Source of the DNA: Candidatus Saccharimonadia bacterium
GTDB lineage: Bacteria > Patescibacteriota > Saccharimonadia > UBA4664
DNA: 64,000 nt
Reading direction: 5' to 3'
Assembly (NCBI GenBank): GCA_035544015.1
Contig: DATKIP010000010.1
Span: forward strand, 6,449-70,448
Under the pieces are notes generated by a model, which was not told the DNA's origin, searched no databases, and was given only the letters and a program-made list of their open reading frames with translations. The stretch's first letter is position 1; each line of letters begins with the position of its first letter. The translations under genes were made by a program, and so were the position numbers. Below, piece by piece: positions 27,653 to 46,846 of this stretch.

Positions 27653-27665
27653 CTCAAGACCCAGG

Positions 27666-28724
27666 TTAAAAATTACCGGCGCCCACCACCGTAATCGTGT
27701 CAGTATAATCATTACCCGCCGGCGTTGCCGCCGAAATCGTCGCTCGCTCGATCAGCGAAATCACATCCCCGTTGGCCGTCCCGCCGGTGCACGCAGCAAT
27801 CGGCTGATAGGTGGTGCTAAGCGTACCACCTTGAGCCGTTGTAGCGCCATTATATTCCGCATCAACCGCCAGCGTGCAGCCGCCGCTCGCATCGGTCGTC
27901 AAATCCGTATCGAGCACGTAGCCTTCGGCCCCGCCGTTGATCGTCGACGGCGCACCATTCACCGTGCCGGCCGTCGGGATCGTATAGGTCGTCGAAGCCG
28001 AATGCAGCCCCCCAAACTGATCCTTCGCCCACGCGATCCAGCCGCCCTTGGCGTTCGTGGTCACGGTCGCCGTCACCCCGTTCGTCGATACAATGCCGCC
28101 GGACCCCACCGTCGGGTCAAGGTTGCCCGTAAACGTATCCGCGTACCCGCTGAGCGTCAAAATAAACGACGGCGGCACTACAGCCGTCACCACGATCGAG
28201 TCATCGGTGTTATTCGCCAAAGCCACATACGTAAAGTCCACCACCACGCTACCCGAAGTCTGCGTCTGAATATTCGCCTGCTGGCTATTGGCCGCCGCGG
28301 ACGCCGTCGTGAGCGTACTCGTGCCGGAAAAATTAAAACAATACTGCGTGCCTACTGTGAGGTCGCTCGAAGGAAATGTCGCTGCTTTGGTACCGTTATC
28401 CGCATTCGAAGCCGTCGTAATGCCCGGCCAAGCCGTTGCCGTAGCCGGAATATTGGTTGTAGTCACCGTCCAGTTGGCCGCCGTAGTGTTGAGCGTATAT
28501 GTCGAAGGAAACGTCACGATAACCTTAGCCTCTGTTCCCACCGTGGCGGGCGTGGCGCAAACCATCCCCCCCGTCGCCGTGTTGACCTTCATGCGATCGA
28601 GCCGCACAAAGGCCTGCTGAAATGCCCCCTCGGCCGTTGCCGGGAGGAGCTGTCCCACCACACTGAGCATCAACGCTACAGCCGAAACTACTCTCAAAGA
28701 CGGGCGCCGACTCCAGCGGTGCAT
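27666..28724 (-). CDS. secreted WxL-like surface protein paralog
   Basis: Signal. GMVCATPATVG. C-terminus NDYTDTITVVGAGNF. Confidence 0.5.
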   Translation of the reverse strand: MHRWSRRPSLRVVSAVALMLSVVGQLLPATAEGAFQQAFVRLDRMKVNTATGGMVCATPATVGTEAKVIVTFPSTYTLNTTAANWTVTTTNIPATATAWPGITTASNADNGTKAATFPSSDLTVGTQYCFNFSGTSTLTTASAAANSQQANIQTQTSGSVVVDFTYVALANNTDDSIVVTAVVPPSFILTLSGYADTFTGNLDPTVGSGGIVSTNGVTATVTTNAKGGWIAWAKDQFGGLHSASTTYTIPTAGTVNGAPSTINGGAEGYVLDTDLTTDASGGCTLAVDAEYNGATTAQGGTLSTTYQPIAACTGGTANGDVISLIERATISAATPAGNDYTDTITVVGAGNF

Positions 28725-28832
28725 TCAAACTCCATCAACACTACTTGCTCAGTAGTGTATCCGAAGCATAAGAAGCATGCAACTGCCTATCGGTCTGTGA
28801 GGCCGAAAGACCCGCGCTTCATTACCTTCCTC

Positions 28833-29972
28833 TTAAAAGTTACCCGCGCCCACCACCGTGATCACATCCGTGTAGTCTGATCCGGCCGGCGTACCGCCGC
28901 GGATTACCGCGCGCTCGTAGAGGGTCAGTACATCGCCGTCCGAGGTGGCCGGCGCGGCGCCGCCACAGCTGGCGATCGGGCGATAGCTCGTATTGCTCAG
29001 CACACCGCCGCCGTTACCGCTCGCACTGTTGAAGGCGGCATCGATCCCGTAGGGAGTAGTAAACCCACAGCCACCCGTCGCATCGGTCGTCAGATCCACG
29101 TCCATCACGTATCCCTCGCGTCCCACACCACCGCCACTCGCTACCAGGTCGAAGGCGGCGTCACCCGTCACGTGCAGCTGAGTCGGGTAGGGGTTCTTCA
29201 GGCCAGAATCAATCGTGTAGTTGGCCGCCGCCGAGTGCAAGCCCGCGTACTGATCCTTCACCCAAGCAATCCAGCCGCCCACCGCGTTGGTCGTGACGGT
29301 CGCGGTCACACCCGCCGTCGACACAATATTGGTAGGATCAAGGTTGGTCGTAAACGCATCCGTGAAGGCACTTAGCGCGATCGTGAAGTTCGGCGGCACT
29401 ACCGCGCTCACCACGATACTGTCGTCGGTTGTCACCGTGTAGGCCCAGTTGGTCTGGTTGACGGGCAGCGGCGTACCCGCGTTGTCGTATGTCACCAGCG
29501 TGGCACCAGTGATGCTCACCGAAGTCGTCGCCGAACCGTTCGTCAGCCGCGCCGCCGTGTGAAAGCAGTACTGCGTGGCCGCGGTCAAGTCGCCCGAAGG
29601 AAATCGCACCGTGTGGCCGCTCACGGTCGTCGCCGTCCCGATGCTAGGCCACGCCGTAGCTCCCGCCGGCAAGTCGCTCGTATCCACCGTCCAGTTCGAA
29701 GCCGTCGAGTTGACCACGAAGTCCGTCGCCCCACCGTCAGTCGGGAAGGTCACGTCCACCAACGTCTCTGTCGCACTCGTCGAAGCCGCCGACGGGGTAG
29801 CACACACCATCACGCCCGTAGCCGTCAGCGCCTTATGACGATCCGGCCGCACAAACGCCTGCGTAAACTGCGGCGGAGCCGCCTGGGCAACTCCCGAAAA
29901 AGCCGGCACCCATAACTCTGCTACGAGAGCGGCGACGGCGGCGACGATAAGTCTGATTTTTGGTTTGTTCAT
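28833..29972 (-). CDS. secreted WxL-like surface protein paralog
   Basis: MNKPKIRLIVAAVAALVAELWVPAFSGVAQA signal. VMVCATPSAAST. C-terminus SDYTDVITVVGAGNF. Confidence 0.5.
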   Translation of the reverse strand: MNKPKIRLIVAAVAALVAELWVPAFSGVAQAAPPQFTQAFVRPDRHKALTATGVMVCATPSAASTSATETLVDVTFPTDGGATDFVVNSTASNWTVDTSDLPAGATAWPSIGTATTVSGHTVRFPSGDLTAATQYCFHTAARLTNGSATTSVSITGATLVTYDNAGTPLPVNQTNWAYTVTTDDSIVVSAVVPPNFTIALSAFTDAFTTNLDPTNIVSTAGVTATVTTNAVGGWIAWVKDQYAGLHSAAANYTIDSGLKNPYPTQLHVTGDAAFDLVASGGGVGREGYVMDVDLTTDATGGCGFTTPYGIDAAFNSASGNGGGVLSNTSYRPIASCGGAAPATSDGDVLTLYERAVIRGGTPAGSDYTDVITVVGAGNF

Positions 29973-30064
29973 TTGTTTAACTTTATTTTCGCCACCACAG
30001 TGATTGGGTGGTTCGAGAGACTTTTAAGGACTTTTTAAGAATCTGCTCCCAGCTTATCGGAAAC

Positions 30065-30110
30065 CGCTTATGCCTGTCAACTCTTTTTTACAACAGTTGA
30101 CAAGCATAAG
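30065..30110. repeat. 17-bp inverted repeat (1 mismatch) with 12-nt T-rich loop between two WxL-like genes
   Basis: gcttatgcctgtcaact cttttttacaac agttgacaagcataagc. Each arm contains TTGACA/TGTCAA. Confidence 0.6.
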
Positions 30111-30122
30111 CCCAGTCCCTGG

Positions 30123-31175
30123 CTAAAAACTCGCCGACGCCACCGCCGTCAGCACCTCTGCGTAATCTCCCGACGCCGGTGTCAGCGGTTTGGTTTTGGC
30201 CTTCAAAATAAACGACCCGCGACCACCCACCAGCGGCGCCGGCGCCGAAAAAATCTCGCGGATCAACGCATCGGCGGTGCCCACATTCGCCGCCGACCCG
30301 TTATACGGCGCGGTCAGCGCCAGCGGACCGCCCGAACTCTGCGTCGCCGACACCCCCTGCGCCCCGAAGCCCTCCGCCACCGCGCTCAGATCCGCCGTCG
30401 CCGCCCCAATCGTGTAAGCCGCCTGCGTACTTTTGAGCCCAGCATTCTGCCCACTCAGATACACCTTGCCCCCCGATTCGCCGTTCGTATCCAAGCTCAC
30501 CCACACCCGCTTGGCCGAATCCGTCACCGTGCTCACGAGCAAGCTCCCAAAGTCGATCTGATACGGCGGGCTCGTGCTCGTATCCGTCGTAGCCACGTCA
30601 ATGTCAAACGCCAGCTGCGGATCCACCGTCGCCGCACTCGTCGTCGGTCCATACCCGCTCTCGGTGAATTTACCTCGATACGCCTTGGCCTTCACCGTGT
30701 ACACCGTACTCCGCGCCAGCCCTCGCACCATCACCCCCGCACCCGAACCCCAGGCCGCGTACGTTTGGTAATCACCAAAGCTCAGCGACGAGCCGATGGT
30801 CAAATCGCTCTTTATATAGCGTGTATCCGCCACAAAATTATCAGTCGAAATCGCCACCGCAAACACCGCGTCACTCGGATTGTTCGCCGGGCCAATCAGC
30901 ACTTTGAGCTTGTTGTACCAGTTGTCATCATTACTAATCGTCACCGTCGGCACATTGGCCTGCTTCTCGTGCGCCTCGCCCGCTCCCGCCTTGTAGTTGG
31001 CCGACGAGGCCGACCCCGCCACCTCGCCCGCCGCGCCGTTAATCCGGTAATTGGCGGAGCTCGAATTCGCCGTCCCGCCATTGCCGAAGCCGTACGAATT
31101 CAATTCATAATTTCCGCTCGCTGGCAGCCCCGCTATCATCCAGCCGGCCAACCACACCCCCAGCCACTTGCCCAT
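30123..31175 (-). CDS. secreted WxL-like surface protein paralog (ATG at MGKWLGVWLAGWMIAGLPASG; the ORF track begins 4 codons upstream at a GTG)
   Basis: C-terminus GDYAEVLTAVASASF. Start ATG overlaps the upstream TGA (TGATG). Confidence 0.5.
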   Translation of the reverse strand: MGKWLGVWLAGWMIAGLPASGNYELNSYGFGNGGTANSSSANYRINGAAGEVAGSASSANYKAGAGEAHEKQANVPTVTISNDDNWYNKLKVLIGPANNPSDAVFAVAISTDNFVADTRYIKSDLTIGSSLSFGDYQTYAAWGSGAGVMVRGLARSTVYTVKAKAYRGKFTESGYGPTTSAATVDPQLAFDIDVATTDTSTSPPYQIDFGSLLVSTVTDSAKRVWVSLDTNGESGGKVYLSGQNAGLKSTQAAYTIGAATADLSAVAEGFGAQGVSATQSSGGPLALTAPYNGSAANVGTADALIREIFSAPAPLVGGRGSFILKAKTKPLTPASGDYAEVLTAVASASF

Positions 31176-31906
31176 CACTGCTTCCACCGCAAGCTACCTT
31201 TAATAAGCGCCATAATCGCCGAAATATCGTCGTGCGGATCAGTGCTAGTGATCGAAATTGTCAGGTTTTTGCCTCCATGAGGCCAAAATAACGTCTGCTC
31301 GTGGCCATCGGTTTTGGTCATGAACTTCACGGTCTCGCCACCCACCACCTCGGCACTCGCCCGGTAATCCGCCGCATGGATTTCGCGCACCCGCCAGCTC
31401 GCATCGTCCGCTAGCTGGCCGCTCGGCAACGGCCGCACCTCCACCGCCACCCGATGCCTGTAATTCGTTTTGGAACCTATCGTATACTGCTCGAGCACTT
31501 GCGCGTCACTTTTGGACTGCGACACCTGGTCAAACATACCCGGATACGTAAACGAAATAATGAGTCCCGCCAGCACATTCGTGTCTGCGGGTGTAGCCGT
31601 CGGCGCCGCTTCAGTTTGCACCTGCCCCAACACCTTGGCCTGCGCCTCCACCGGCCCGTCCACCAGCCGCATCACGCCCACGACCACGCCGCCCGCCAGC
31701 GCCCCGACCACCACGAGCGACGACAGCCACGCCGCCATATGCGCCCGGCCTCGCCGCCGCGGGCGCTCCGCCTCGCCGGGCTCACGGCCGTCTCCAGCCA
31801 CTTCGGCCACCACCTCCTGCGGCGACACCCCGTGGAGCTGCGCCGCATGCCGCACCGTCCGCCGCAGCTCCTCGTCATTCACGCTCGGGCCTCCTAACAA
31901 AACCAT
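31175..31906 (-). CDS. hypothetical single-pass membrane protein (cytoplasmic Arg/Glu-rich N-terminus, TM, extracytoplasmic domain)
   Basis: AHMAAWLSSLVVVGALAGGVVVGV TM. G/T wobble typical of - strand genes. Start codon lies inside the 18-bp inverted repeat. Confidence 0.5.
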   Translation of the reverse strand: MVLLGGPSVNDEELRRTVRHAAQLHGVSPQEVVAEVAGDGREPGEAERPRRRGRAHMAAWLSSLVVVGALAGGVVVGVMRLVDGPVEAQAKVLGQVQTEAAPTATPADTNVLAGLIISFTYPGMFDQVSQSKSDAQVLEQYTIGSKTNYRHRVAVEVRPLPSGQLADDASWRVREIHAADYRASAEVVGGETVKFMTKTDGHEQTLFWPHGGKNLTISITSTDPHDDISAIMALIKGSLRWKQ

Positions 31907-33708: not shown

Positions 33709-34836
33709 GTGGCAGACGAACCCAAAACCAACACCCCCGCCCCGGCCTCCCCGCCGGATGGTCAAACCACGCCCCCAGCCGCAGCCCCCACCCCAGACGC
33801 ACCGCCCACTGCCGATCCCGCCGCCGATTCCTCCGCCGAGGCCAAAGCCGTCGCCGCCTCCGTCCAAAAAGACCCACTCTCCGACGGCACCATCCCCACC
33901 GTGCTTACCCCCGGCGACAGCCACAAAAAAGTCCCCCGGGGCAAAGCCTCCATCACCTCCATCTACCGCCGCGCCGACATCATGACCACGCTCTTTACCT
34001 TCGTCGGCGCTCTCGTAGCCGCCGCGATTGTCGTGGGCATCTATGCCTACTTCACCCGCGCCCACTCCTCCACCACCCCGACCCCCACCAAAGTCGCCAC
34101 CCTCGATAAATCCGAGCTCGAAAAACTCGGCGCCTTCTTCGACGGCAACTCCGCCGGCGCCGGAGGCGAAATCCTCACTATCACTTCCTCCACCCTTTTC
34201 AAAAACCGTGTCGCCGTCGGCTCCGATCTCAAAGTCACCGGCGGATTGCAGGTCACCGCCACCGCCGCCCTCGCCGACCTCACCGTCGACAAAACCAGCA
34301 CGCTGGGCATCACCAACATCCGCGGCGCACTCACCGTCACCGGCCCGCTCACCGCCCAGAGCCCCGCCATCCTCGGCGCCGGCGCCACCATCACCGGCAA
34401 TCTCAATGCCACCGGCAACGGCACCTTTGGCGGCTCACTCTCGGCCACTAGTCTCAATGTCCACGACATCTCCGTCGCCGGCACCCTCAACCTCGCCGGC
34501 CACCTCTCGATCAGCGGCCAAAACCCGTCCGCCGCCCCCATCACCGGCGTCTCCACCTCGGCCTCGGTCGACGGCAACGACGCCGCCGGCACCGTCACGG
34601 TCACCGTCGCGCCCCACACCGGCAGCACCCCGTCGGCCCAGCTCGTCACCGTCACCTTCCGCAGCGCCTACCCCCGCGTGCCCCACATCGTCATCACCCC
34701 CATCGGCCCCGGCTCGGCCCAATTTCAGCCATTCATCCTCAAAACCGCCACCGGCTTCACCATCGGCGCCGCCGATTTCGCCACCCCCAACAACAACCCC
34801 ACCAGCTACTCGTTCGACTACTGGGTGGTGCAATAA
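33709..34836 (+). CDS. membrane-anchored beta-helix-repeat protein with conserved C-terminal beta-sandwich domain; paralog of 12484-13431
   Basis: GTG start. Pro/Ala-rich N-terminus, TM TLFTFVGALVAAAIVVGIYAYF, repeats LKVTGGLQVTATAALADLTVDKTSTLGITNIRGALTVTGPL. C-terminal VTVTFRSAYPRVPHIVITPIG...YSFDYWVVQ. Confidence 0.6.
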   Translation: MADEPKTNTPAPASPPDGQTTPPAAAPTPDAPPTADPAADSSAEAKAVAASVQKDPLSDGTIPTVLTPGDSHKKVPRGKASITSIYRRADIMTTLFTFVGALVAAAIVVGIYAYFTRAHSSTTPTPTKVATLDKSELEKLGAFFDGNSAGAGGEILTITSSTLFKNRVAVGSDLKVTGGLQVTATAALADLTVDKTSTLGITNIRGALTVTGPLTAQSPAILGAGATITGNLNATGNGTFGGSLSATSLNVHDISVAGTLNLAGHLSISGQNPSAAPITGVSTSASVDGNDAAGTVTVTVAPHTGSTPSAQLVTVTFRSAYPRVPHIVITPIGPGSAQFQPFILKTATGFTIGAADFATPNNNPTSYSFDYWVVQ

Positions 34837-35216: not shown

Positions 35217-35479
35217 GGCTACAAAGCCCCTTTCGTGCCTGGGTCTAGCAGGCGTGCCTGTATTTAATGTCGCATAACTAAGGTAGACTACCAGAAAAGC
35301 TCCCTTTTAGCAACCAAAACCCTTGCATATTGGCCTCATATAGGCTAAACAGGGAAGGTCGCGTTGACAACTAGGAGGTAATGTTGCCGCTCTGAGGACG
35401 TCGACCGGACCAACCTTGGTTCCGGCCCCACCCATTCAATGAGCTTCGCGCCCTACCGGCGCGAGGAGGGATCAAACTC

Positions 35480-36244
35480 GTGACCGCTTCTGAGCCCCCA
35501 ACTGCCCCATTCTGTCCCACGTTTGCCATCGACCCCGCCCCGTACACGAACCCCGGGGACACCTACCGGGACCTTCGGGCGACAATGCTGAACCGCCTGC
35601 CGTCCGGCGATCTGCTGCTCGGCGGCACACTCCCGGGACAGGTGACGGACCTGGCTCTCGCCTTCAGCAACAGCGTTCCGAACCTCGGCCTCCTGGCCGA
35701 TCGCATCACGGTCTTCAGCGCCTGGGACGACCCGCAGGTCTTCGAAGAGGGCAAGCTCGCCATCGATACCGGGCTCACAGTGCACGACCTATCCCGGCCG
35801 TTCCCGCTGCCGTTCGGCCAACTCCTCGGCCACTTCAACGGCAACCCCAACGAGTTCGCCGAGCTCATGGACGGTTCGTGCACGCCGCTCGGGCTGGTCG
35901 TGATCTGGCCATACCGCGGCCTGAAGCGCGAGGTCATGCAGGCCATCTACACGGCGGTCTGCCAAGCGGTCTTTCCCGAAGGCCAGCGGCTACCCGAGGG
36001 ACTCGCCGCCCACACCGCCTTCCTGCTCCACGACGGCCGGCTGCTGGTCGCCGAGGGCTGGCGCTCCTCGGGCGAGCAGCAGGAGCACATGGTGGGCCGG
36101 GTACTGCCGGCCCTGGCCGCCCAGTTCTCGGACCGAGGTCTCGGCCAGCTCCCGACGCCGATCACCATCCTGGGCGGACTGCTCAGCCTGGGCATCGCCG
36201 GCGACGGCGGCTACCGCCACCTCGCCGCACCGACCTCGGCCTGA
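35480..36244 (+). CDS. hypothetical protein with atypical (ctg/aag, GC3-rich) codon usage; candidate horizontally acquired gene
   Basis: GTG start 10 nt after GAGGAGGG. 254 aa with no recognisable motifs. Codon usage unlike native + strand genes. Followed by a strong GC hairpin. Confidence 0.45.
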   Translation: MTASEPPTAPFCPTFAIDPAPYTNPGDTYRDLRATMLNRLPSGDLLLGGTLPGQVTDLALAFSNSVPNLGLLADRITVFSAWDDPQVFEEGKLAIDTGLTVHDLSRPFPLPFGQLLGHFNGNPNEFAELMDGSCTPLGLVVIWPYRGLKREVMQAIYTAVCQAVFPEGQRLPEGLAAHTAFLLHDGRLLVAEGWRSSGEQQEHMVGRVLPALAAQFSDRGLGQLPTPITILGGLLSLGIAGDGGYRHLAAPTSA

Positions 36245-36278
36245 TCCACCACCCGTCCCTTCCACCCATCAACGCGAC

Positions 36279-36305
36279 GGGGCCCGGCGTTCAGCGCCGG
36301 GCCCC
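36279..36305 (+). terminator. GC-rich 11-bp perfect hairpin (ggggcccggcg ttcag cgccgggcccc) without U-tract
   Basis: Read directly; located 35 nt after the 35480-36244 stop. Confidence 0.5.
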
Positions 36306-36328
36306 ACCCCCGCCCTCATCCCCAAATC

Positions 36329-37444
36329 TCATCCCTCAAACTGCAACTTCTTACGCCGCGTCGACACACTCTCGAGCAAACCAAGGCTTGCCATAGCCAC
36401 AATCAGCGCCGTGCCGCCATAGCTCACAAACGGCAGCGGAATGCCCGTCACCGGCGCGATCCCCATATTCATTCCCGCATTCACAAACAGATGGAACAAA
36501 ATCATCGCCGTCACTCCCACCGCCAAAAACATCCCAAACCGATCCTGCGCGATGTACGCAATCCGCACCCCCCGGTATAGCAACACCCCAAACAGCAAAA
36601 GCAGCAACATCCCCCCCACAAACCCCAGCTTTTCATTCAGCACCGCAAAAATAAAATCCGTATGCTGCGCCAGCGACGGCAAAAAATTCAGCTGACTCTG
36701 CGATCCCGCCGCCAGCCCCCGCCCAAACACCTGCCCCGAGCCAATCGTGATCGTCGATTGGATCACATTATGCCCCGCCCCCAGCGGATCCGCATGCGGA
36801 TTCAAAAACACCGTTAACCGGTCGCGCTGATACGCTTTGAGATGGCTCAAAATCACCGGCAACAACGCCACCGCCACACCCGTCAGCGCCAGCAAATACA
36901 CCTTGCGCACCCGACTCACGAGCGCCATCGCCAGCCAAATCGCCGCCAGCACCAAGGCTGTACCCAAATCCGGCTGCCGGATCACGAACAACATCGGCAC
37001 CGCCACATACCCCAACGACATGGCCAAATACCGCACCCGATGCATCTGATCGTAATGATCTGAAAAAAACTTAGCCAACACGATGATCACCACCAATTTC
37101 GCAAATTCACTCGGCTGAAATTGAAAAAACCCCAGATCAATCCAACGCTGCGCCCCCAGCACCGCCCGCGACGACACAAGCACAATCACGAGTAACAGCA
37201 AGGTCACCCCATACAACCACGGCGTCAGCTTCACCCAGGTGCGATAATCCACCCGGGCCATAAAGAAAAACACCCCCAGTCCCACAATCGCAAACGCCAG
37301 CTGGTGCCACACATCAGTCAGACTCACCAGCTTGGTAGCCTTAAACGAGGTCGAATAAATCACGAGCAAACCCAGCGCCACGAGCAAAATCATGACCCCA
37401 AATAACACCCAGTCAAAATGCCTCCAGAAGCGCCGGCTCAACAT
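36329..37444 (-). CDS. ftsW: FtsW/RodA/SpoVE family lipid II flippase / peptidoglycan glycosyltransferase
   Basis: 10-TM profile with conserved SEDS-family segments (FQPSEFAKL, GIAPVTGIPLPFVSYGGTALIV). Adjacent to other division genes. Confidence 0.8.
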   Translation of the reverse strand: MLSRRFWRHFDWVLFGVMILLVALGLLVIYSTSFKATKLVSLTDVWHQLAFAIVGLGVFFFMARVDYRTWVKLTPWLYGVTLLLLVIVLVSSRAVLGAQRWIDLGFFQFQPSEFAKLVVIIVLAKFFSDHYDQMHRVRYLAMSLGYVAVPMLFVIRQPDLGTALVLAAIWLAMALVSRVRKVYLLALTGVAVALLPVILSHLKAYQRDRLTVFLNPHADPLGAGHNVIQSTITIGSGQVFGRGLAAGSQSQLNFLPSLAQHTDFIFAVLNEKLGFVGGMLLLLLFGVLLYRGVRIAYIAQDRFGMFLAVGVTAMILFHLFVNAGMNMGIAPVTGIPLPFVSYGGTALIVAMASLGLLESVSTRRKKLQFEG

Positions 37445-37520
37445 TCCCCTATCTTACCGTCCCTCCCCGGCCCGCGCCATCCCGTTCGCACCAAGCCACC
37501 CGCACATAGCCCCATCACTC

Positions 37521-37548
37521 TTGAACTTAATTGAAATTCTTGTATAAT
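37521..37548 (+). promoter_or_regulatory. near-consensus sigma70 promoter TTGAAC-16-TATAAT (TG immediately upstream of -10)
   Basis: ttgaacttaattgaaattcttgTATAATac. AGGAGG RBS at 37575-37580 follows. Confidence 0.6.
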
Positions 37549-37582
37549 ACAAAACCAGCACGCCTCAACGACTGCTAGGAGG

Positions 37583-37918
37583 ATGCTCGTGCACATTTCC
37601 GACACCGAATGCATACTGAGCCGGATCGCCGAAGGCTCTGAGCGGCAGCCCCGGGTCACACTCACCCCCTGGGGAGCCCCCTTCGAAGACACCACCCTCA
37701 CACCCTTCGCCACCGGCACCATGGGTTGCCAGGGAGCCTACGTGCTCGTCGGCCTCACCCGCCGAGGCCTCCTGCGCTTCTGCTTCGCACCCTGCTCGTT
37801 CGGCCCATGGCGGCCCGAGCTGGAGTTCGGCCCCGACCGGCAGTCGTACCGGCAGGCAGCCCAACAGCTGAAGCTGATGACCCGCTTCGGCGACCTCCGC
37901 CAGACCGTCAGCGCCTAG
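37583..37918 (+). CDS. small hypothetical protein (about 110 aa) with atypical codon usage; start more likely GTG at 37589
   Basis: Consensus promoter plus AGGAGG plus ORF plus hairpin. ctg/aag-rich codons unlike native + strand genes. Confidence 0.45.
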   Translation: MLVHISDTECILSRIAEGSERQPRVTLTPWGAPFEDTTLTPFATGTMGCQGAYVLVGLTRRGLLRFCFAPCSFGPWRPELEFGPDRQSYRQAAQQLKLMTRFGDLRQTVSA

Positions 37919-37927
37919 CCCGCCACC

Positions 37928-37966
37928 GCGGCTCCTTATCCCTCCACCGAGCGGACAAGGAGCCGC
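37928..37966. terminator. 10-bp perfect hairpin (gcggctcctt ... aaggagccgc, 19-nt loop) between convergent 37583-37918 and ileS
   Basis: Arms read directly; weak T-run on the + side. Confidence 0.45.
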
Positions 37967-37973
37967 TCACCAT

Positions 37974-40898
37974 TTACGCCTTCACGATCCCGATGTACAG
38001 CTCAGCCCCATCCACTTTTACCGGCACCTCACCAGTCGCGCCGGTCGTCAGCAGTTTCGTCGCCAGCGTCTCAGTCTTGATGGTTTCACCATGCGTCCGC
38101 AACGCCGCCGCCAGTTCCGGAGCCTCGGTCGCCAGCGTCAACACAATCCGGTCATCCACTTCCAGCCCCGCCGCCTTGCGCGCGCTCTGTACCTGCCGCA
38201 CCACCTCGCGCATCAACCCTTCGGCCTTCAGCTCGAGCGTGATTTCAATATCGAGCTCTACCATCGCCGTACCGGCCACATGATCCGGATCGCCGCTAGC
38301 CGCCACTACCACCTGCTTCACATTGAGCTCCTCAGCCACGAGCGCCTTCAGCTGCCCAGACGCCTCGTACGTCGGGTCCAACGTGTCTCGCACCGTCGCC
38401 TTCGCCAGCGGCTGCCGCACTTTAATCTTCGCCTCGGCCCGCTTCGCCAATCCCATGGTAATCGCCTCGCGCGTCAGAGCCATTTCGCGAATCAACCGCG
38501 CGTCCACCTCGCCCGCCTCGGGCCAATCACTCAGATGCACGCTCACCACCTCATCCATACCCTCAGTCAAACCACGCCATAGCTTATCCGCCACAAACGG
38601 GCTCCACGGAGCCAAAAGCTGGGCGATCCGGGCAAGGGTATAGTGCAAAGTTACATAGGCGCCGTGCTTATCGCCATCATCCTCGCTCTTCCAAAACCGC
38701 CTTCTGGAACGCCGCACATACCAGTTGGATAAATCGTCAATAAGCAGACGCAGCGGCCGCAGCGCCTGAGCCAGCTCATAGGCATCAGCCGCCGTCGTCA
38801 TCGCCGTCGTCGTTTCGTCCAGCCGCGCCAGCATCCACCGATCGAGCACATTGTCGCTCGCCGGCCGCACCAGCTTCTTGCCCGGCTTCCATCCATCAAT
38901 CTCCGCGTACATGCTCAAAAACGAGTAGCTATTCCACAGCGTGCCAAACACATTGCGCTGAATATCCCGCATCGCCTCGCGGTTAAACCGCATATAGTCC
39001 GCGCCCACCGCCTGGTCGTTGCCCAGCAAGTAAAACCGCAGCGTATCAGCTCCTTCGGTCGCAAACACGTCCTCCACCGGCGGATAATTCCGCAGCCGCT
39101 TGCTCAATTTCTGCCCATCCGCCGCCATCACCATGCCGTTCACGAGCACGTTCTTGTACGCCGGCCGGTCAAATGCAATCGTGCTCAAAACATGCAACAC
39201 ATAAAACCACAGCCGCGTCTGATCCAATCCCTCACCCACATAATCAGCCGGGAAGCTCTCATCAAACACTGTCTCATTCTCAAACGGATAATGCTGCTGC
39301 GCCACCGGCATCGAACCGCTCTCAAACCAGCAGTCAAACACCTCCTCGACCCGCTTATAAACCTTGCCGTCCTTGCGAATCACCACCTCGTCGATGCCCG
39401 GCCGGTGCAAATCCTCGGGCTTGCCCTCAAGGCCCGCCAGCTTCACCAGCTCATCCAGACTCCCCACTACCAAATAGTCATCCGCATCCTTCTCATTCAC
39501 CCAGATCGGCAGCGGCGCGCCCCAGTACCGGTTGCGCGAAATCGCCCAGTCCCTGGCCCCCTCCAGCCACTTCCCAAACCGGCCGTCTTTAATATGCGCC
39601 GGCTGCCAATGAATCTGCTCCGCCGTGCGCATCATATCGTCCCGCACCGCCGACACCTTCACAAACCAGGTCGTAATAGCGTAATACAGCAGCGGCGAGT
39701 CACACCGGTAGCAAAACGGATACGTATGCGTAAACGTCTCCGCCGCATACACCCGTCCCGCCCGCGTCAAATGCTCCACGATCGCCGGGTCCGCCTCCTT
39801 AAAGAACACCCCCTCCACCTCATCCAGCCCCATCCCCGGCTTCACGCGCCCGCTCGTGTCCACCGTAGTAAGCACGGGGAAGCCATTATCCTGGCCGATC
39901 TTAAGGTCTTCCTCGCCGTACGCCGCCGACACATGCAGCACACCCGTGCCATCCTCCACGCTCACCGTATCCGAGAGCCGCACCTGGTACAAATTCTCAT
40001 ACCCCTCAAGCTTGTCCAGCCCCTCCACCGTAAACAGCGGCTCATACCGCTTACCCGCCAGCTCACGGGCGCTCACCTTCTTGAGCACCGTGAAGTCATC
40101 ACCTTTGAGCGCGCTCAAGCGCTTCTCGGCCAGCACCAGCACCTCATCCCCCTCCGTCGTCTGCACATACACATACGCCTCATCCGGATGCACCGCCACC
40201 GCCCCGTTGCCGCTCAGGCTCCATGGCGTCGTCGTCCACGCCAGCAGGCTCGCGTCCTCATCCACCAGCTTAAACTTCACATACAGGCTCGGGTCCGGCA
40301 CATCGTCCTTATACCCCTCATTCACCTCAAAATTGCTCAGCGGCGTCTCGCACCGCGGACAATACGGCATGCTCTTATACCCCCGATACAGCAGCCCCTT
40401 CTCGTTCACCCGGCCCAGCATCCACCACACACTCTCGGTGTAGTCGCGGTCGATAGTAGCATAAGCATTCTCAGTATCAGTCCACCGCCCAATGCGCCGG
40501 AAAAATTCCTCCCAATCGCCCTTGTACTTGAACACGCTCGCCCGGCAGGCCTCATTAAACTTCGCCAGCCCCAGCTCCAAAATCTGCTTCTTCCCGCTCA
40601 CCCCCAGCTCTTTCTCAATCGCAAACTCCACCGGCAACCCATGCGTATCCCACCCGTTCCGGCGCTCCACATACTCACCCTGCATCGTGTGATACCGGCC
40701 CAGCGAGTCCTTAATAGCAGTCACCAACGAATGCCCAAAATGCGGCAACCCATTCGCAAACGGCGGCCCATCATAAAACGAATACCGAGGCTTACCCTCG
40801 CGATTCTTCAAGCTCGCTTCAAATGTCTTCTCATCACTCCACGCTTTCAGCATTTCGGCTTCAAAAGCGGGAAAATCGGCTTGTGGTGCTTTCTTCAT
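37974..40898 (-). CDS. ileS: isoleucyl-tRNA synthetase
   Basis: HIGH-region PFANGLPHFGHSL. KMSKS variant GQKLSKRLRN. 974 aa with class-I editing-domain architecture. Confidence 0.95.
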   Translation of the reverse strand: MKKAPQADFPAFEAEMLKAWSDEKTFEASLKNREGKPRYSFYDGPPFANGLPHFGHSLVTAIKDSLGRYHTMQGEYVERRNGWDTHGLPVEFAIEKELGVSGKKQILELGLAKFNEACRASVFKYKGDWEEFFRRIGRWTDTENAYATIDRDYTESVWWMLGRVNEKGLLYRGYKSMPYCPRCETPLSNFEVNEGYKDDVPDPSLYVKFKLVDEDASLLAWTTTPWSLSGNGAVAVHPDEAYVYVQTTEGDEVLVLAEKRLSALKGDDFTVLKKVSARELAGKRYEPLFTVEGLDKLEGYENLYQVRLSDTVSVEDGTGVLHVSAAYGEEDLKIGQDNGFPVLTTVDTSGRVKPGMGLDEVEGVFFKEADPAIVEHLTRAGRVYAAETFTHTYPFCYRCDSPLLYYAITTWFVKVSAVRDDMMRTAEQIHWQPAHIKDGRFGKWLEGARDWAISRNRYWGAPLPIWVNEKDADDYLVVGSLDELVKLAGLEGKPEDLHRPGIDEVVIRKDGKVYKRVEEVFDCWFESGSMPVAQQHYPFENETVFDESFPADYVGEGLDQTRLWFYVLHVLSTIAFDRPAYKNVLVNGMVMAADGQKLSKRLRNYPPVEDVFATEGADTLRFYLLGNDQAVGADYMRFNREAMRDIQRNVFGTLWNSYSFLSMYAEIDGWKPGKKLVRPASDNVLDRWMLARLDETTTAMTTAADAYELAQALRPLRLLIDDLSNWYVRRSRRRFWKSEDDGDKHGAYVTLHYTLARIAQLLAPWSPFVADKLWRGLTEGMDEVVSVHLSDWPEAGEVDARLIREMALTREAITMGLAKRAEAKIKVRQPLAKATVRDTLDPTYEASGQLKALVAEELNVKQVVVAASGDPDHVAGTAMVELDIEITLELKAEGLMREVVRQVQSARKAAGLEVDDRIVLTLATEAPELAAALRTHGETIKTETLATKLLTTGATGEVPVKVDGAELYIGIVKA

Positions 40899-41110
40899 GG
40901 GTGCTCCTTAAATACAAAAATCCATCCGTTTGCAGGGACCCTTTCGGGCGGTTCCACCCTGCTTTCCAGATGGGACACTTCATTCGTTCTCGATTAACGT
41001 CCGAGACATTTACGTCGGGTTCTACTCTCGCTTATCAGACGATTTCTTCCCGCAGCTTCGCGGTTGATAGCCGCTCATGCGCTTTTTCAGCACAGTGCTT
41101 TTATCTAATT
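40899..41110 (-). promoter_or_regulatory. T-box riboswitch leader of ileS (approximate extent)
   Basis: The mRNA strand carries AAAGCAGGGUGGAACCGCCCG (T-box consensus AGGGUGGNACCGCG), followed by a GC stem, a U5 run and AAGGAG 8 nt before the AUG. Confidence 0.6.
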
Positions 41111-41191
41111 GTGAGGCTATAATACCATATTAGAGACAATAAATGAACGAGCTGATCAAATAATTAAGAGCTAACCCTGTAAAGAAACATC

Positions 41192-42196
41192 ATGAAGACA
41201 ATCAGCAATAAGGAACTAAAAGAAATAATCCAAAGCGGCCATATTAACCTCCTACTAGGATCTGGGTGCTCGCGCGATTACCTTGCAACTCTCCAGGACA
41301 TCGAAGAAAGGATGAATAATGAGGCCACAAAGGAAGCTGCGCAAAAAGACTACTACAAACTGATCCTTAAATCCAAAGCAGTCCTTGATGAAACTTTAGA
41401 AACCAGTCCAACCGAGAAAAGAAAATTACTAAAGACACGACAAAACTACGACTCGTTCCTCGGCTTTTGGGTCGACACAGTCGCCAAAAGGTCACTACAT
41501 ATCGTCAATAAACAAATAAATATATTTACGACCAACTTTGACATGTTCATTGAAGCATCCTGCGAGAGGCTTAATATTCCATACAACGATGGCTTCGCAG
41601 GTCAAATCAACCCTGTTTTTAGCGTATCTAACTTCAATAAAATTCAAAAATACAAAAGCCTACAGTTTGATAACACTTCAGATATTCCCCTGTTCAACAT
41701 CATTAAGTTACACGGCTCGCTATCATGGCAAGCAAAAGACGAAGTGATCACCTATTCAAACGGACAACACATCGAGAACGGCCTGGACACCAAAACAGGC
41801 ACCGATTTTGATGAAGGCTACAAGCAAATCGCAGTTATTAATCCGAATGCTGAAAAGCATTTCGAAACGGTGCTTAACAGAAGCTACGCATCAATGCTGC
41901 GTAAGTTCACATTAGAGCTTGAAAAAGAAAACAGCGTATTACTAATTGCCGGATTCTCGCTGTCGGATAAACACATAAAAGACCTCCTATACGGGGTCAT
42001 GAAGTCAAACCCCACTCTTGTGGTCATCTATTTCGCGCATTCCCCATATAACGAGGCATCAGACAAGCTTAACGAAAAAAAGAACCCCAACCTGTATATA
42101 ATCTCTCCGGAAACCGAATTCTCGCTCGAGGAGATTACTGCCTATATTTCAAAAATTTTCAACGACAAACCTGAGGTTCACGAGGATGGCGAATAA
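41192..42196 (+). CDS. SIR2-like (SIR2_2 family) NADase-type defence protein; partner of HerA
   Basis: INLLLGSGCS Rossmann start, FTTNFDMFIE (TTNYD-like) and KLHGS motifs. AT-rich. 11-nt overlap with the downstream gene. Confidence 0.8.
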   Translation: MKTISNKELKEIIQSGHINLLLGSGCSRDYLATLQDIEERMNNEATKEAAQKDYYKLILKSKAVLDETLETSPTEKRKLLKTRQNYDSFLGFWVDTVAKRSLHIVNKQINIFTTNFDMFIEASCERLNIPYNDGFAGQINPVFSVSNFNKIQKYKSLQFDNTSDIPLFNIIKLHGSLSWQAKDEVITYSNGQHIENGLDTKTGTDFDEGYKQIAVINPNAEKHFETVLNRSYASMLRKFTLELEKENSVLLIAGFSLSDKHIKDLLYGVMKSNPTLVVIYFAHSPYNEASDKLNEKKNPNLYIISPETEFSLEEITAYISKIFNDKPEVHEDGE

Positions 42197-44075
42197 TTTC
42201 AGTCTACAAGAACGCCTAACCAGTGATTCGGTTTTTACAATCGGTAGCGTATACAGTGTCAAGGGAAAAGACATTGTTGTTAAGGTTAATAAGGACAAGA
42301 ATCTCCCCCATCTATTCTTTAAAGGACGGACGATTAAAAATGTCTCCGTCGGACTCTCGAACTACATTAAAATCCTGAAAGGCTTCACTGAGATCATATG
42401 CAAAGTTGAAGGCGAATACCTTGAGGAAGACAAATTCCAGGCCAACAAAAGCTATGCCAATGAAAAACAAAAAATAAACCGCTTCCTGAATGTTTCAGTT
42501 TTCGGTTTTTATGACGACGATCACAACTTCCAGCATGGCATAAAAGAGATGCCGCTGATAGGCAGCGAGTGCAAATTACTTTCAAGAAGCGAGTTTGAAA
42601 AACTCCATAAACTATCTAACGAAAAAGAACTCTCAATACCACTTGGCTCGTTAATTGATGAGGAAACACAAAATATATCTATCGCGGTTAAAAAACTATT
42701 TGCGGGACATATTGGTATCTTCGGCAATACTGGTTCCGGCAAGTCCAACACCCTCGCCAAAATGTACTCTGAGTTATTCAAACTAAATAATCTAAGCGGC
42801 AACTTCAAATCAAAGTCAAAGTTCATATTCATCGACTTCAACGGCGAATATTCGAAAGCGACAAACGATCACATCCTAACAGACCAAAAAATCCTATATA
42901 AATTAAAAACACGCGACAATACAGGAAGCAAATATCCCATCTTAAAGTCAGAGCTTGAGAAATTGGAGGTTCTGTCAATTCTATTGGATGCCACAGAAAA
43001 GACACAGCAGCCCTTCTTATACAGAGCAATTGATAGAGACTGGTTTGATACTGATAACGCAAACCACGAAAAAGAGATCAGAAGCATTACCCAAAAACTA
43101 AAAGACATCCTAGTCATGAAGGATAAAAGCTTTAATGTTCCATTTCTCAAAAAGTTCGTTAAGGACTTTGAACAGCTAGGTTTTAAGATAGTTGGAGATA
43201 GCAAGAATATTGACGATCTAAAATACCACGGTAACGACAATTGCGCTTTCTACTTCATTAGCGGTGGCATTAAGGTTTATGCAGACACAAATGAAAGCGC
43301 TTTTATTGGGGAAGCCGGGTACTTTAACGTATCAGTCAGAACACCATTAAACATCTTGCAGCAGATACAGTTCAAAGTATTAGACCAATATTACTTCGAA
43401 ATTCTTAATGGGTACGCAAATCAAGAGCATATTAGCCCTTTAGTTGGACGTCTGAAAAAACGCTTCGACATGCTGAATAAGGTGTTTGATATTAGGAATG
43501 AGCTTCCAGATTCCACTGGGTCAAATGTACACATTATTGACTTAAAAAACGTCAATTTAGAAGTTAAAAAGATAATCCCTTTATTAATCTGCAAGACGAA
43601 TTACGACAACCAAAAGGAAAAAAGAGAAACCGACAAGAATAACTCGCTCAACATTATCATCGACGAGGCGCACAATATTCTCTCAGAAAATTCGAGTCGA
43701 GAGGCAGAATCTTGGAAGGATTACCGTCTTGAAACGTTCGAAGAAATTATTAAAGAAGGGAGAAAGTTCGGCGTTTTTCTTACCATCGCCAGCCAACGCC
43801 CATCGGACATCTCCCCTACCATCATCTCGCAACTCCACAACTACTTCATCCATAGGCTAATGAATGACAATGACTTGTGGGCAATCAATAAAGCCGTTAG
43901 CTACCTTGATAAGCTTTCATTTGATTCAATATCAAATTTATCAATAGGCTGCTGTTTTATTGCAGGACAGATGACGCAGTTTCCATTGTCAGTAAAGGTA
44001 GGCCTGCTAGACAGGGACGAACAACCGCAAAGTGAAACAATCGATCTGGACGAACTTTGGCGATCAGACCTATGA
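42186..44075 (+). CDS. HerA-like (DUF87) FtsK/HerA-superfamily ATPase of the SIR2-HerA anti-phage system
   Basis: Walker A GNTGSGKSN, Walker B IIIDEAHN, FLTIASQRPSDISPTIISQLHNYFIHRL, N-terminal barrel-like VYSVKGKDIVVKV. Confidence 0.85.
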   Translation: MANNFSLQERLTSDSVFTIGSVYSVKGKDIVVKVNKDKNLPHLFFKGRTIKNVSVGLSNYIKILKGFTEIICKVEGEYLEEDKFQANKSYANEKQKINRFLNVSVFGFYDDDHNFQHGIKEMPLIGSECKLLSRSEFEKLHKLSNEKELSIPLGSLIDEETQNISIAVKKLFAGHIGIFGNTGSGKSNTLAKMYSELFKLNNLSGNFKSKSKFIFIDFNGEYSKATNDHILTDQKILYKLKTRDNTGSKYPILKSELEKLEVLSILLDATEKTQQPFLYRAIDRDWFDTDNANHEKEIRSITQKLKDILVMKDKSFNVPFLKKFVKDFEQLGFKIVGDSKNIDDLKYHGNDNCAFYFISGGIKVYADTNESAFIGEAGYFNVSVRTPLNILQQIQFKVLDQYYFEILNGYANQEHISPLVGRLKKRFDMLNKVFDIRNELPDSTGSNVHIIDLKNVNLEVKKIIPLLICKTNYDNQKEKRETDKNNSLNIIIDEAHNILSENSSREAESWKDYRLETFEEIIKEGRKFGVFLTIASQRPSDISPTIISQLHNYFIHRLMNDNDLWAINKAVSYLDKLSFDSISNLSIGCCFIAGQMTQFPLSVKVGLLDRDEQPQSETIDLDELWRSDL

Positions 44076-44122
44076 ACCAGCCACCCGATCCATCACCGAC
44101 GGCTTAAAACACAGCATATAAC

Positions 44123-45397
44123 TCAGGGGGTTTTCCACCCTTGCTGTTTCAAATATTCTTTTAGCATGTCTTTGTTTGGAGTGTGCATTCCAAAATCCCA
44201 ATAAAATCTTTCAACTGTTTCAAGAACTTCGGTGCTTAACGACTCAATATCATTAAGCTTTACGGTGTCTAAATTAGCCACCTCCCACTCGTAAGACCCA
44301 AGTTTGGTAAGCTCGGACCCACTCCCAAACGAGCTCCGTTGCCAACCATCAGGTAAGGGCCCATAAACAGCCACTCCCTTGGCTTTATCCAATGATATTC
44401 TGCAAGTCAACAAACCATTGAAGCCGATAAGATTGTAGAATTTCTTCGCAACCTCGAGTTGCCTTACCAAATTCGATACCATATGCCCCATGGCGATCTG
44501 ACGAATACCTTTGGTCGGATCAGCGCTTAGAACATCGACAACCGAGTCAATCACACCTTTTTCTGTCACCTCGCCGTATCTGAAATCACTATCAATCCAC
44601 GACCAAGCAGCAAACATTATGCCTCCAGGCATCGTTTCGACATTGAGCTCCGGAAAATCTCTATAAAATCTTGTTCGGACGCGATATTCATCAAGTTTAT
44701 CCTTGATAAATCGATAGTTAACAATTGCTTCAGATGGAGAAATTGGCATGATCGTAACTCTAAAAGGCGATTCTATTTCTGCCGGCTCATGCTTTGAAAC
44801 GCTACTCGGGTCCAATTGTCTCTTTTCTTTCCATTCGCCGATAGCCCTGTCTAGCGCTGCTCTGTAAATGAGATCAGAGCTAGCAAGAGCATCTTGGCGC
44901 AGAACTTGAGCTCTTGCCTTTTTCTCATGCAGCTTCTCTAACTCACGCGAATCGGCATTTCGGAGAGGTGTACTAATATTGCCTGTTCTTAACCGTATCG
45001 TAGAATCACTATTCGACATATAGGGTGGCTGATCACCCTCAAAAATCTTTACCAGCAAAAATATCTTCCCAGCCTTTTCGTCCGTTGCTCGTACTTCATA
45101 CCGAGGAAAAGGTGACACATTTGAAGCAAACTGATGCACTTGGTCTATGAGTTTGCCATCAAATACGATACCTTCATATGTTTTAGGCTTTCCGGTGACG
45201 CTATCTTCCTCGACACCAATAATAATTAGCCCACCGTGTGTATTGGAAAAAGTAGCAAAATGCTTCGATAAATCGCCTGGCATGGACTTCTTATAATCCA
45301 ACACGGCCGATTCGAGTGTTTCTGCACGACAACACTCCACTACGTCATCAAATGTAATTTCTTGAAACGCTTTGGTCAGTATATTCATAAAGGCCAT
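44123..45397 (-). CDS. AlbA_2 (Schlafen-like) domain protein, probable defence-island gene
   Basis: N-terminal ESAVLDYKKSMPGDLSKHFATFSNTHGGLIIIGVEE matches the AlbA_2 core (E..K......k.i.AfaNt.GG.l.iGv.d). AT-rich. Alternative ATG at 45388. Confidence 0.65.
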   Translation of the reverse strand: MAFMNILTKAFQEITFDDVVECCRAETLESAVLDYKKSMPGDLSKHFATFSNTHGGLIIIGVEEDSVTGKPKTYEGIVFDGKLIDQVHQFASNVSPFPRYEVRATDEKAGKIFLLVKIFEGDQPPYMSNSDSTIRLRTGNISTPLRNADSRELEKLHEKKARAQVLRQDALASSDLIYRAALDRAIGEWKEKRQLDPSSVSKHEPAEIESPFRVTIMPISPSEAIVNYRFIKDKLDEYRVRTRFYRDFPELNVETMPGGIMFAAWSWIDSDFRYGEVTEKGVIDSVVDVLSADPTKGIRQIAMGHMVSNLVRQLEVAKKFYNLIGFNGLLTCRISLDKAKGVAVYGPLPDGWQRSSFGSGSELTKLGSYEWEVANLDTVKLNDIESLSTEVLETVERFYWDFGMHTPNKDMLKEYLKQQGWKTP

Positions 45398-45455
45398 TAT
45401 ACGTCTCTGACGAACCAACCGTTACATTGCCAAATGAACCAAAAAGCTGTCCAGC

Positions 45456-46833: not shown

Positions 46834-46846
46834 ACAAGGAGCCGTC

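Follow-up and report, generated by a model that had tools for sequence, protein, structure and literature searches.

How did three small genes of unfamiliar composition come to lie among the housekeeping genes of a Saccharimonadia bacterium? The question is raised by a 64,000-nucleotide stretch of DNA from Candidatus Saccharimonadia bacterium (assembly GCA_035544015.1, contig DATKIP010000010.1, positions 6,449 to 70,448), here called the window, in which a sequence-only reading had singled out three + strand open reading frames (ORFs), 35480-36244, 37583-37918 and 57935-58381, as recently acquired, self-contained expression cassettes from a high-GC donor. The ORFs, termed c1, c2 and c3, are present as that reading described them, with 254, 111 and 148 amino acids (aa). 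They are foreign in composition, and they occupy gaps in which relatives of this organism carry other genes or none. Import of genes at hot spots, a known process rather than a new mechanism, is the moderately probable account developed below; within it, we infer the donor phylum and the direction of transfer.

The genes in question, and the housekeeping gene that c1 and c2 bracket, are:

c1, 35480-36244, + strand: cytoplasmic protein of 254 aa, predicted to fold as a ferredoxin-like (ABM-type) tandem
c2, 37583-37918, + strand: 109-111-aa protein with no detectable homologue or family
c3, 57935-58381, + strand: 148-aa predicted lipoprotein (lipobox LLAGC, Cys20) with an all-beta mature part
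ftsW, 36329-37444, - strand: native housekeeping gene between c1 and c2 (Pfam FTSW_RODA_SPOVE, 8e-104)

The products are also recorded at NCBI (VMT30_00260, VMT30_00270 and VMT30_00390) in a metagenome-assembled genome (MAG) named 'Candidatus Saccharimonadia bacterium', and the proteins closest to FtsW, 81-61% identical, come from Saccharimonadia/Patescibacteria MAGs. Saccharibacteria live as obligate epibionts, their genomes are tiny, and their usual host phylum is Actinomycetota. In genomes so small, a few imported and strongly expressed genes are good candidates for host-acting factors, and three fixed, recognisable slots could be surveyed across genomes to yield a catalogue of candidate interaction genes. 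If the donors were indeed actinobacterial hosts, the cargo of the slots could point to the host identity of uncultured Saccharimonadia. The c1 gene adds a new protein family, with a predicted ABM-type fold and an unusual conserved architecture at the mRNA ends or in the flanking DNA.

Composition against a strand-biased background

The + strand GC skew lies between -0.1 and -0.37 throughout the 64 kb, the majority of genes are on the - strand, and native codon usage is set by strand to an extreme degree. Genes on the - strand favor GCG (65%), GTG (84%), TTT (82%) and, for Lys, AAG (71%); native + strand genes favor GCC (82%), CTC (65%), TTC for Phe (69%) and AAA for Lys (78%), in line with the earlier description of native + strand genes as users of C-ending codons and AAA. 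Codon-based screens of this genome for horizontal gene transfer (HGT) must, on account of this strand dependence, be run per strand.

The cassettes fit neither strand class. They use AAG for all 8 of 8 Lys codons, CTG at 44%, CGG at 48%, CCG at 44% and NNC at 88-100%, so that the ctg/ccg/aag preference attributed to them is real. Their G+C content at third codon positions (GC3), 0.86-0.89, is the window maximum, compared with 0.78-0.85 in the three native + strand genes that the sequence-only reading had offered as examples, 0.62-0.81 in the listed - strand genes and 0.68-0.85 in the ten native + strand genes that entered the codon models. The excess is strongly frame-specific (GC at codon positions 1/2/3 of c2 is 0.64/0.54/0.86). 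Third-position skew is -0.23 to -0.35 in the cassettes, as against -0.46 to -0.76 in the same three examples together with 33709-34836, and -0.38 to -0.76 in the ten native + strand genes. That the pattern stems from a native gene inverted not long ago is ruled out: GC3 and NNC usage lie above both native strand classes and not between them.

A discriminant that sets the native codon model against an Actinomycetota-like model, the latter derived from one Actinomycetota-like contig, gives log-likelihood differences of +0.05 (c1), -0.05 (c2) and +0.17 (c3), compared with -0.23 +/- 0.07 for native genes (z = 2.5-5.7). Total GC is 0.68-0.69 versus 0.606, and high GC combines with weak skew in only 0-1.4% of windows of the same size. 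The most telling test of composition is the strand-symmetrised dinucleotide distance, which removes both strand bias and base composition. By this measure the cassettes lie 0.194 from native DNA, and native samples lie 0.066 +/- 0.020 from it; 0 of 1000 are as far away. Each cassette stands out individually (z = 5.2 for c1, 2.9 for c2 and 3.95 for c3). The shift shows in TA (0.44 in cassettes vs 0.80 in native DNA), AG/CT (1.09 vs 0.73) and AA/TT (0.89 vs 1.22), and it brings the cassettes to within 0.101 of the flanks of an Actinomycetota-like contig, L082, and 0.112 of a Streptomyces plasmid segment. The three genes are thus compositionally foreign, by codon discriminant, by GC and by strand-independent dinucleotides, and they differ from the recipient by more than sampling noise. 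Taken with the promoters and hairpins described below, these checks establish the observation as real and well above chance.

Turnover of genes in three inter-operon gaps

The gaps that hold c2 (ileS-ftsW), c1 (ftsW-rplU) and c3 (hisS-band7) are hot spots of gene turnover. Relatives keep the order ileS-ftsW-rplU and, after it, a 375-aa gene on the opposite strand; what lies between the genes varies. The ileS-ftsW gap measures 25-83 bp in the related loci L004, L007 and L009, and 393-3349 bp, with unrelated cargo, in L001, L002, L008 and L010 (2.2-3.3 kb in L010 and L008). In L001 the 393-bp gap holds a small antisense ORF with the promoter TTGATA-17-TATAAT. In L002 the gap of 1669 bp (4332-6000) holds two antisense membrane-protein ORFs with a GC3 of 0.86-0.92 in a genome of 55% GC; the first has a TTGACA-17-TATTAT promoter, an AGGAG and a terminator, and the second has an AGGAG with no clear promoter. 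The same L002 interval contains a run of N and a poly-G tract, and its assembly is imperfect. In L003 a c1-family member lies just upstream of ftsW, and the contig stops short of ileS.

The ftsW-rplU gap is 68-160 bp long in L002, L005, L006 and L010 and 620-1736 bp elsewhere; in L004 it contains two c1-family cassettes, each with its own GC hairpin. In L001, the closest GTDB relative, it is occupied (7123-7764) by a HAD hydrolase gene of GC 0.44 on the same strand as ftsW, and the hot spot thus also takes AT-rich cargo in sense orientation. The hisS-band7 gap is about 70 bp long and free of cargo in L087. It is about 680 bp long in L085, where it encodes a 136-aa membrane protein (GC3 0.87) behind the promoter TTGACA-17-TACAAT. 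Window and L085 align only in the band7 block and in the block of hisS plus hairpin, 57769-58459 remaining unaligned. A conserved promoter chassis at this slot was considered and ruled out, as the two promoter regions share consensus hexamers only.

The distribution of cargo among relatives is therefore patchy, the slots being empty or filled with unrelated genes; neither c2 nor c3 occurs in any of the relatives fetched. When FtsW and band7 were looked up exactly, in search of strain variants, the same organism or nothing came back. The cargo of L083, L085 and L002 is itself a dinucleotide outlier leaning toward L082 (z = 2.6-4.9).

Candidate signals for expression and termination accompany the cassettes:

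c1 promoter-like box TTGCAT-17-TAAACA, 35322-35350, + strand: weak match with a putative promoter function
c1 ribosome-binding site AGGAGG, 35464-35469, + strand: 10 nt ahead of the GTG start
c1 GC hairpin, 36279-36305, unstranded: 11-bp perfect stem, no U tract, between convergent c1 and ftsW (-31 kcal/mol, z -4.75)
c2 promoter, sigma-70-type TTGAAC-16-TATAAT, 37521-37548, + strand: divergent from ftsW, 10/12 matches
c2 ribosome-binding site AGGAGG, 37577-37582, + strand: abuts ATG 37583 and lies 6 nt ahead of GTG 37589
c2 hairpin, 37928-37966, unstranded: between convergent c2 and ileS (-28 kcal/mol, z -6.9)
c3 promoter, sigma-70-type TTGACA-17-TATTAT with TG extension, 57854-57882, + strand: 11/12 matches
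c3 hairpin, 58460-58488, unstranded: 13-bp perfect stem, then a short T run, between convergent c3 and hisS (-28 kcal/mol, z -4.0)

The two textbook promoters previously reported are both present, at c2 and c3, and account for two of the five sites with at least 10/12 matches on either strand of the window. Upstream of c1 there is no consensus promoter, only the weak box. Strong GC-rich hairpins follow all three genes, as had also been claimed. Perfect stems of at least 9 bp occur at 3 places in the 64 kb, two of which are the c1 and c3 hairpins. The accompanying description of the hairpins as largely lacking U-tracts holds for c1 and c2, which have no T run, and less well for c3, which has a modest one (ACGAAACTTTTA only); a terminator scan called none of the three. 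Rfam yielded no RNA family, either at gathering thresholds or, over the cassette regions, at relaxed ones, and no tRNA lies nearby.

Two of the hairpins do not belong to the cargo. The hairpin following ileS is kept in L001, with compensatory changes, beside a different cargo, and the c3 hairpin is 90% identical in L085, also beside an unrelated cargo, and absent from the cargo-free L087. Their retention in relatives with other cargo indicates that these hairpins are part of the ileS and hisS backbone, and that cargo is swapped alongside them. The notion of self-contained cassettes accordingly survives for the promoters of c2 and c3 and fails for their hairpins. Where cargo is lacking, an ileS-ftsW gap of 25-83 bp suggests co-transcription of the two genes. 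In the window, insert and hairpin should break that co-transcription, and ftsW would need a new promoter. Within 37445-37582, a weak TTGTAT-17-TAAGTT on the - strand overlaps the AT-rich patch of the c2 promoter.

The c1 family, its module, and the c2 and c3 products

Actinobacterial matches had been anticipated from a protein search, and did not appear: a word-indexed search of 5.8 billion proteins returned nothing beyond self-hits for c1, c2 and c3. An exhaustive phmmer search, made for c1 alone against 1.84 billion representatives, gave 356 matches, most of which are spurious Kelch-type repeat matches to residues 165-200 ('HTAFLLHDGRLLVAEG'). Three are full-length relatives (P0015, P0033 and P0072; 234-237 aa, 27-30% identity). 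The family alignment has 26 invariant columns, and the profile of c1 and these three relatives detects ftsW-adjacent ORFs in L004 (2.7e-6 and 0.035) and in L003 (9e-5).

Two of the relatives bear on the history of the family. P0033 is encoded on L083, a contig from Saccharimonadia that shares synteny with 27.7-36.8 kb of the window; the FtsW fragment there is 84% and L21 83% identical to the window proteins, and the P0033 gene lies antisense in the rplU-ftsW gap, matching the slot and the orientation of c1. P0015 is encoded on L082, a contig of 63% GC without strand skew that bears TetR, LysR, cupin and ABC-permease genes; in three pieces, a 2.8-kb stretch of it (18% of L082) aligns to a Streptomyces plasmid with a DNA identity of about 70%. 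Pairwise identity is 29% for c1 and P0015, 27% for c1 and P0033, and 39% for P0033 and P0015. The GC3 of the family member equals that of its neighbors on L082 (0.81) and exceeds it on L083 (0.80 vs 0.61-0.71) and L084 (0.91 vs 0.72-0.74), as it also does in the window. Judged by these matches, the c1 family is rare and spans Saccharimonadia and at least one Actinomycetota-like genome. The 'orthologues' that hold its position in related Saccharimonadia have diverged far more than the flanking genes, which fits repeated replacement or very fast evolution.

A second antisense gene (L083 7041-7712; P0164, 223 aa; promoter TTGCAA-17-TATAAA) lies beside that of P0033. Its membership of the family is unproven; it weakly and colinearly resembles the family's first half (hhalign E 0.067), and P0164 may be a very distant paralogue.

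The family is conserved together with its surroundings. In addition to the promoter-like box and the hairpin, the c1 module in the window comprises:

5' arm of the inverted repeat, GTCGCGTTGA, 35358-35367, + strand
3' arm, TCAACGCGAC, 36269-36278, + strand: complementary to 35358-35367 and directly ahead of the hairpin

In four contexts (the window, L083, L082 and L084) a TAAACA/TAGACT box is followed 5-6 nt on by GGTCG(C/T)GTT, ahead of the c1-family gene; 3' of the gene in all four, AAC(G/A)CGAC(C) immediately precedes a GGGCCCGGCG-type GC hairpin. Stems related to GGGCCCGGCG follow family members in L004, L082 and L084. The two arms are the only exact copies of the sequence in the window. 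The 9-mer of the arm occurs in 3 of 164 fetched loci and in two copies only in L083, where the copies flank P0033. In L084 the arms show a compensatory C:G to T:A change, and complementarity extends to 19 bp. Conservation of the module runs beyond both arms, which argues that the arms are not transposon ends. The 5' end of the c1 transcript most likely pairs with the sequence just before the terminator, as this single covariation event would suggest. A contig of an independent Logan assembly (L081; SRR8863102) is 100% identical to window 36272-47918 (11.6 kb), and ends at 36272, inside the right arm and before the hairpin; the end may be a graph branch generated by population heterogeneity, or merely a coverage break.

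The c1 protein had been described as free of recognisable motifs. As regards sequence, this is right. Neither c1 nor its three homologues match any Pfam (ABM included) or NCBIfam model, no match to c1 was found in PHROG or PADLOC, and the family profile has no significant match among PDB sequences. Searches with the family alignment of metagenome and viral contigs confirmed no locus, and tblastn found nothing in plasmids (with c1, c2, c3 and P0015) or phages (with P0015). As regards structure, it is not: the model (pLDDT 62) is recognisable as a tandem duplicate of a ferredoxin-like beta-alpha-beta-beta-alpha-beta fold, and its structural counterparts are tandem ABM/dimeric alpha+beta-barrel proteins, namely 3f44, 3mcs, 9kdp, 5f9p and 4ae5. 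Of these, 3f44 and 3mcs are structural-genomics 'putative monooxygenases', 9kdp is PenE, 5f9p is anthrone oxidase-like and 4ae5 is TRAP. Identity to these structural matches is 4-10%, with no sequence match to a Pfam ABM model or a PDB chain. An ABM-type predicted fold combined with the lack of any ABM match in sequence makes c1 a new sequence family with a known, if only predicted, fold. The model suggests that c1 is probably a small-molecule-binding protein or a cofactor-free oxygenase.

Less can be said of c2, which has no match in Pfam, NCBIfam, PHROG or PADLOC. Its AGGAGG abuts ATG 37583, making GTG 37589 the more likely start; the gene call in another assembly is 109 aa. The earlier identification of c3 as a lipoprotein agrees with its sequence: the N-terminus, MRARPLALAALAAAALLAGC, is a canonical signal peptide with a lipobox of the form L-[AS]-[GA]-C. 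Matches to c3 in Pfam, NCBIfam, PHROGs and PADLOC are weak and confined to the signal regions of lipoprotein models, and a single-sequence AF2 model (pLDDT 47) was too poor for a structure search. Further elements of c2 and c3 are:

Stem-loop TCACTCGGGC...GCCCAGTGA, 57890-57913, + strand: predicted 5' end of the c3 transcript, where its role is conjectural
14-nt motif CGCCTAGCCCGCCA, 37912-37925, + strand: across the c2 stop codon, with an exact match at the c3 3' end
Two copies of the 11-nt core CCTAGCCCGCC, 58377-58387 and 58447-58457, + strand: one copy over the c3 stop codon, the other, 70 bp away, shortly ahead of the hairpin

The c3 stem-loop was also flagged as an inverted repeat on the opposite strand. 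The full CGCCTAGCCCGCCA recurs at 58445-58458, 2 nt ahead of the c3 hairpin, and the exact core CCTAGCCCGCC occurs only 3 times in the window, each time at the 3' end of a cassette. Its first c3 copy makes a small palindrome (CTAGCCCG/CGGGCTAG). In the 164 fetched loci, CGCCTAGCCCGCCA was found only in the same organism's own contig, L081.

Origin of the cassettes and other features of the window

The dinucleotide signatures nearest to that of the cassettes among 146 fetched loci are those of an Actinomycetota MAG (L053, first), L082 (second), a Saccharibacteria locus (L014) and the Streptomyces plasmid segment (fourth), and an Actinomycetota donor is, on this sequence evidence, plausible. Patescibacteria commonly carry HGT islands, mostly acquired from other Patescibacteria (PMC12455944), and Saccharibacteria in culture have Actinobacteria as hosts and possess natural competence (PMC10633639, PMC10187176). 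The course of events would then be the following. DNA would be taken up by natural transformation and recombined into one of three inter-operon turnover gaps, where c1-c3 would persist as real accessory protein genes: coding DNA from a GC-richer genome without strong replication-strand bias, its composition still unlike that of the recipient. Each gene would be read antisense to its housekeeping neighbors, on the lagging strand, c2 and c3 from their own strong sigma-70 promoters and c1 from the conserved weaker box, and a strong GC hairpin would insulate each of them from the convergent upstream gene. The c1 family would travel as a module of promoter box, 5' arm, gene, 3' arm and hairpin, with the arms pairing the mRNA ends; c3 would act as a secreted lipoprotein and c2 as a small protein.

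A number of facts weigh against import from Actinomycetota. The other two of the five Actinomycetota loci are not close in signature (ranks 29 and 35). Scored by the native + strand codon model on its own, c3 alone is low, and c1 and c2 stay inside the native range. The sigma-70 promoters are AT-rich, recipient-like and not of a GC-rich donor type. No close homologue of c1, c2 or c3 is found in Actinomycetota or elsewhere, and the sole cross-phylum link is P0015, at 29% identity on one contig of 6.9 kb (L082). The word-indexed search misses relatives below about 35% identity, which weakens the ORFan label of c2 and c3, and structure adds only a c1 model of moderate confidence, c3 having resisted modelling. 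In at least three other Saccharimonadia (L083, L004 and L003; 22-27% identity) the c1 family already sits in slots beside ftsW, and the L004 members carry a native dinucleotide signature. A family resident in these slots, with native-like members, could have a long history in the clade and have reached L082 by export. Two earlier claims are tempered in consequence. Horizontal acquisition agrees with the foreign composition and the patchy distribution at hot spots; its recency holds in part only, c1 being no fresh, single arrival, given the residence of its family in other Saccharimonadia. A high-GC, actinobacterial donor agrees with signature ranks 1, 2 and 4 of 146, and is called into question by the other ranks, the single homologous link and the AT-rich promoters.

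It is unlikely, but far from negligible, that c1-c3 are native, fast-evolving, lineage-specific genes whose odd composition arose locally, perhaps through GC-biased gene conversion at hot spots of recombination or through selection for G/C-ending codons in genes with strong transcription. Such an origin would accommodate c1-family members beside ftsW in at least four Saccharimonadia genomes, the lack of a homologue of c2 or c3 in any phylum, sigma-70 promoters of the AT-rich kind expected in the recipient, the native signature of the L004 members, and the conformity of c1 and c2 with the native + strand codon model. It does not sit well with a dinucleotide signature that is strongly non-native and L082-like, a shift that GC-biased conversion alone does not predict, nor with non-homologous slot contents in relatives whose flanking proteins are 80-84% identical, nor with the greater proximity of P0033 to P0015, on an Actinomycetota-like contig (39%), than to c1 (27%). 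Far less probable is an account in which the ORFs are incidental and the working products are antisense or divergent transcripts that adjust ftsW, ileS, hisS or band7 expression through transcriptional interference. Each of the three units runs antisense to essential neighbors and converges with the upstream gene, and cargo-free gaps of only 25-160 bp suggest co-transcription that inserts would interrupt; frame-specific GC3, protein-level conservation and a coherent predicted fold of c1, the canonical lipoprotein signal of c3 and properly spaced Shine-Dalgarno sites all speak instead for translated genes. Least probable of all is that assembly or binning created a chimera by wrongly joining actinobacterial reads to a contig of Saccharimonadia. 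Such an error would explain composition unlike the flanks and the Logan contig that ends beside c1. Yet JGI, NCBI/ENA and Logan assemblies independently record the same proteins (on contigs of 525 kb at JGI and 103.5 kb at NCBI/ENA), the Logan contig that bears c2 is 100% identical to the window over its 11.6 kb, and each insert is shorter than 1.2 kb, has native genes on both sides and shares its architecture with relatives.

The remaining alternative grants import and assigns it to a dedicated mobile system: site-specific promoter-to-terminator modules, inserted beside terminator hairpins and exchanged between Actinomycetota and their epibionts, with the c1 arms and CGCCTAGCCCGCCA as recombination sites. 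We consider it improbable. The window proteins scanned include no integrase or transposase, target-site duplications are absent, the c1 module stays conserved past both arms, CGCCTAGCCCGCCA is restricted to the organism's own contig among the 164 fetched loci, and viral, plasmid and phage collections contain no match. What such a system would explain is the preservation of the c1 module, with both arms and hairpin, in four contexts of which one is Actinomycetota-like, the exact 14-nt motif at the c2 and c3 3' ends and its duplication 70 bp apart at c3, the strong hairpin abutting every cargo, and the end of a Logan contig inside the right arm. The corresponding broader proposal, of an undescribed class of miniature expression modules exchanged between Actinomycetota hosts and Saccharimonadia epibionts, with the c1 module as its first recognisable family and CGCCTAGCCCGCCA as a recombination or processing site, is equally doubtful.

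Import at hot spots, the favored reading, has recognisable counterparts. Genomic islets, chromosomal hot spots where genes gained by horizontal transfer collect between conserved core genes, were reportedly described by Oliveira et al. in 2017; PMC12455944 covers Patescibacteria. The gaps considered here resemble islets in their conserved flanking core genes (ileS, ftsW, rplU, hisS and band7), in a content that varies from empty to 3.3 kb, and in cargo of atypical composition and mostly unknown function. They differ in that the units are tiny (one or two genes, 0.5-1.1 kb), that every cargo ORF of the window, L083, L085 and L002 runs antisense to its core genes (in the ftsW-rplU gap, L001, L003, L008 and L009 have ORFs on the sense strand as well), that most inserts carry a near-consensus promoter (c1 and the second L002 cassette excepted) and all abut a strong hairpin, and that no integrase, tRNA or phage remnant is present. 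Integron cassettes likewise carry one short ORF each, are unrelated in function and replace one another at a fixed site, and the motif and palindrome at the c2 and c3 3' ends extend the likeness; in contrast, c2 and c3 have their own promoters, there is no array in one orientation under a common Pc and no attC-type structure, and the shared 14-nt motif is not attC-like and is seen in this genome only. No attI site was seen, and roughly two dozen scanned window proteins, a minority of the window genes, included no IntI integrase. The 10-bp inverted repeat of c1 recalls an insertion sequence or a miniature inverted-repeat element (MITE), but conservation continues beyond the arms, no duplication flanks them and no transposase was seen. 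Saccharibacteria have also acquired host-related genes, the arginine deiminase system being an example (PMC8764695). There, as here, an epibiont with a reduced genome keeps a few apparently imported genes; the present organism differs in being an environmental, high-GC member of the Saccharimonadia and not an oral strain, its cargo is of no known function, and the donor is judged from composition and one distant homologue.

Other parts of the window are unusual in their own ways. A segment at 49396-50070, with GC of up to 0.75 and almost no skew, is not a further cassette; it encodes the C-terminal linker of FtsZ (49447-50994, - strand). Three very large - strand ORFs of 1405, 1528 and 2281 aa (1928-6145, 14040-18626 and 18628-25473) and a series of 350-380-aa paralogous proteins at 26588-31187 have no Pfam match; both groups are probably surface or pilus-associated proteins. 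A single L083 homologue matches both 27666-28724 and 28833-29972, which points to local duplication within the series. More obviously foreign than c1-c3 is a low-GC island at 41192-45418 (GC 0.39-0.45 vs about 0.60). It contains an anti-phage defence pair, SIR2 (41192-42196; PADLOC 2.9e-48) and HerA (42186-44075; 3.3e-172), which is followed by a Schlafen/AlbA_2 gene on the - strand (44123-45418).

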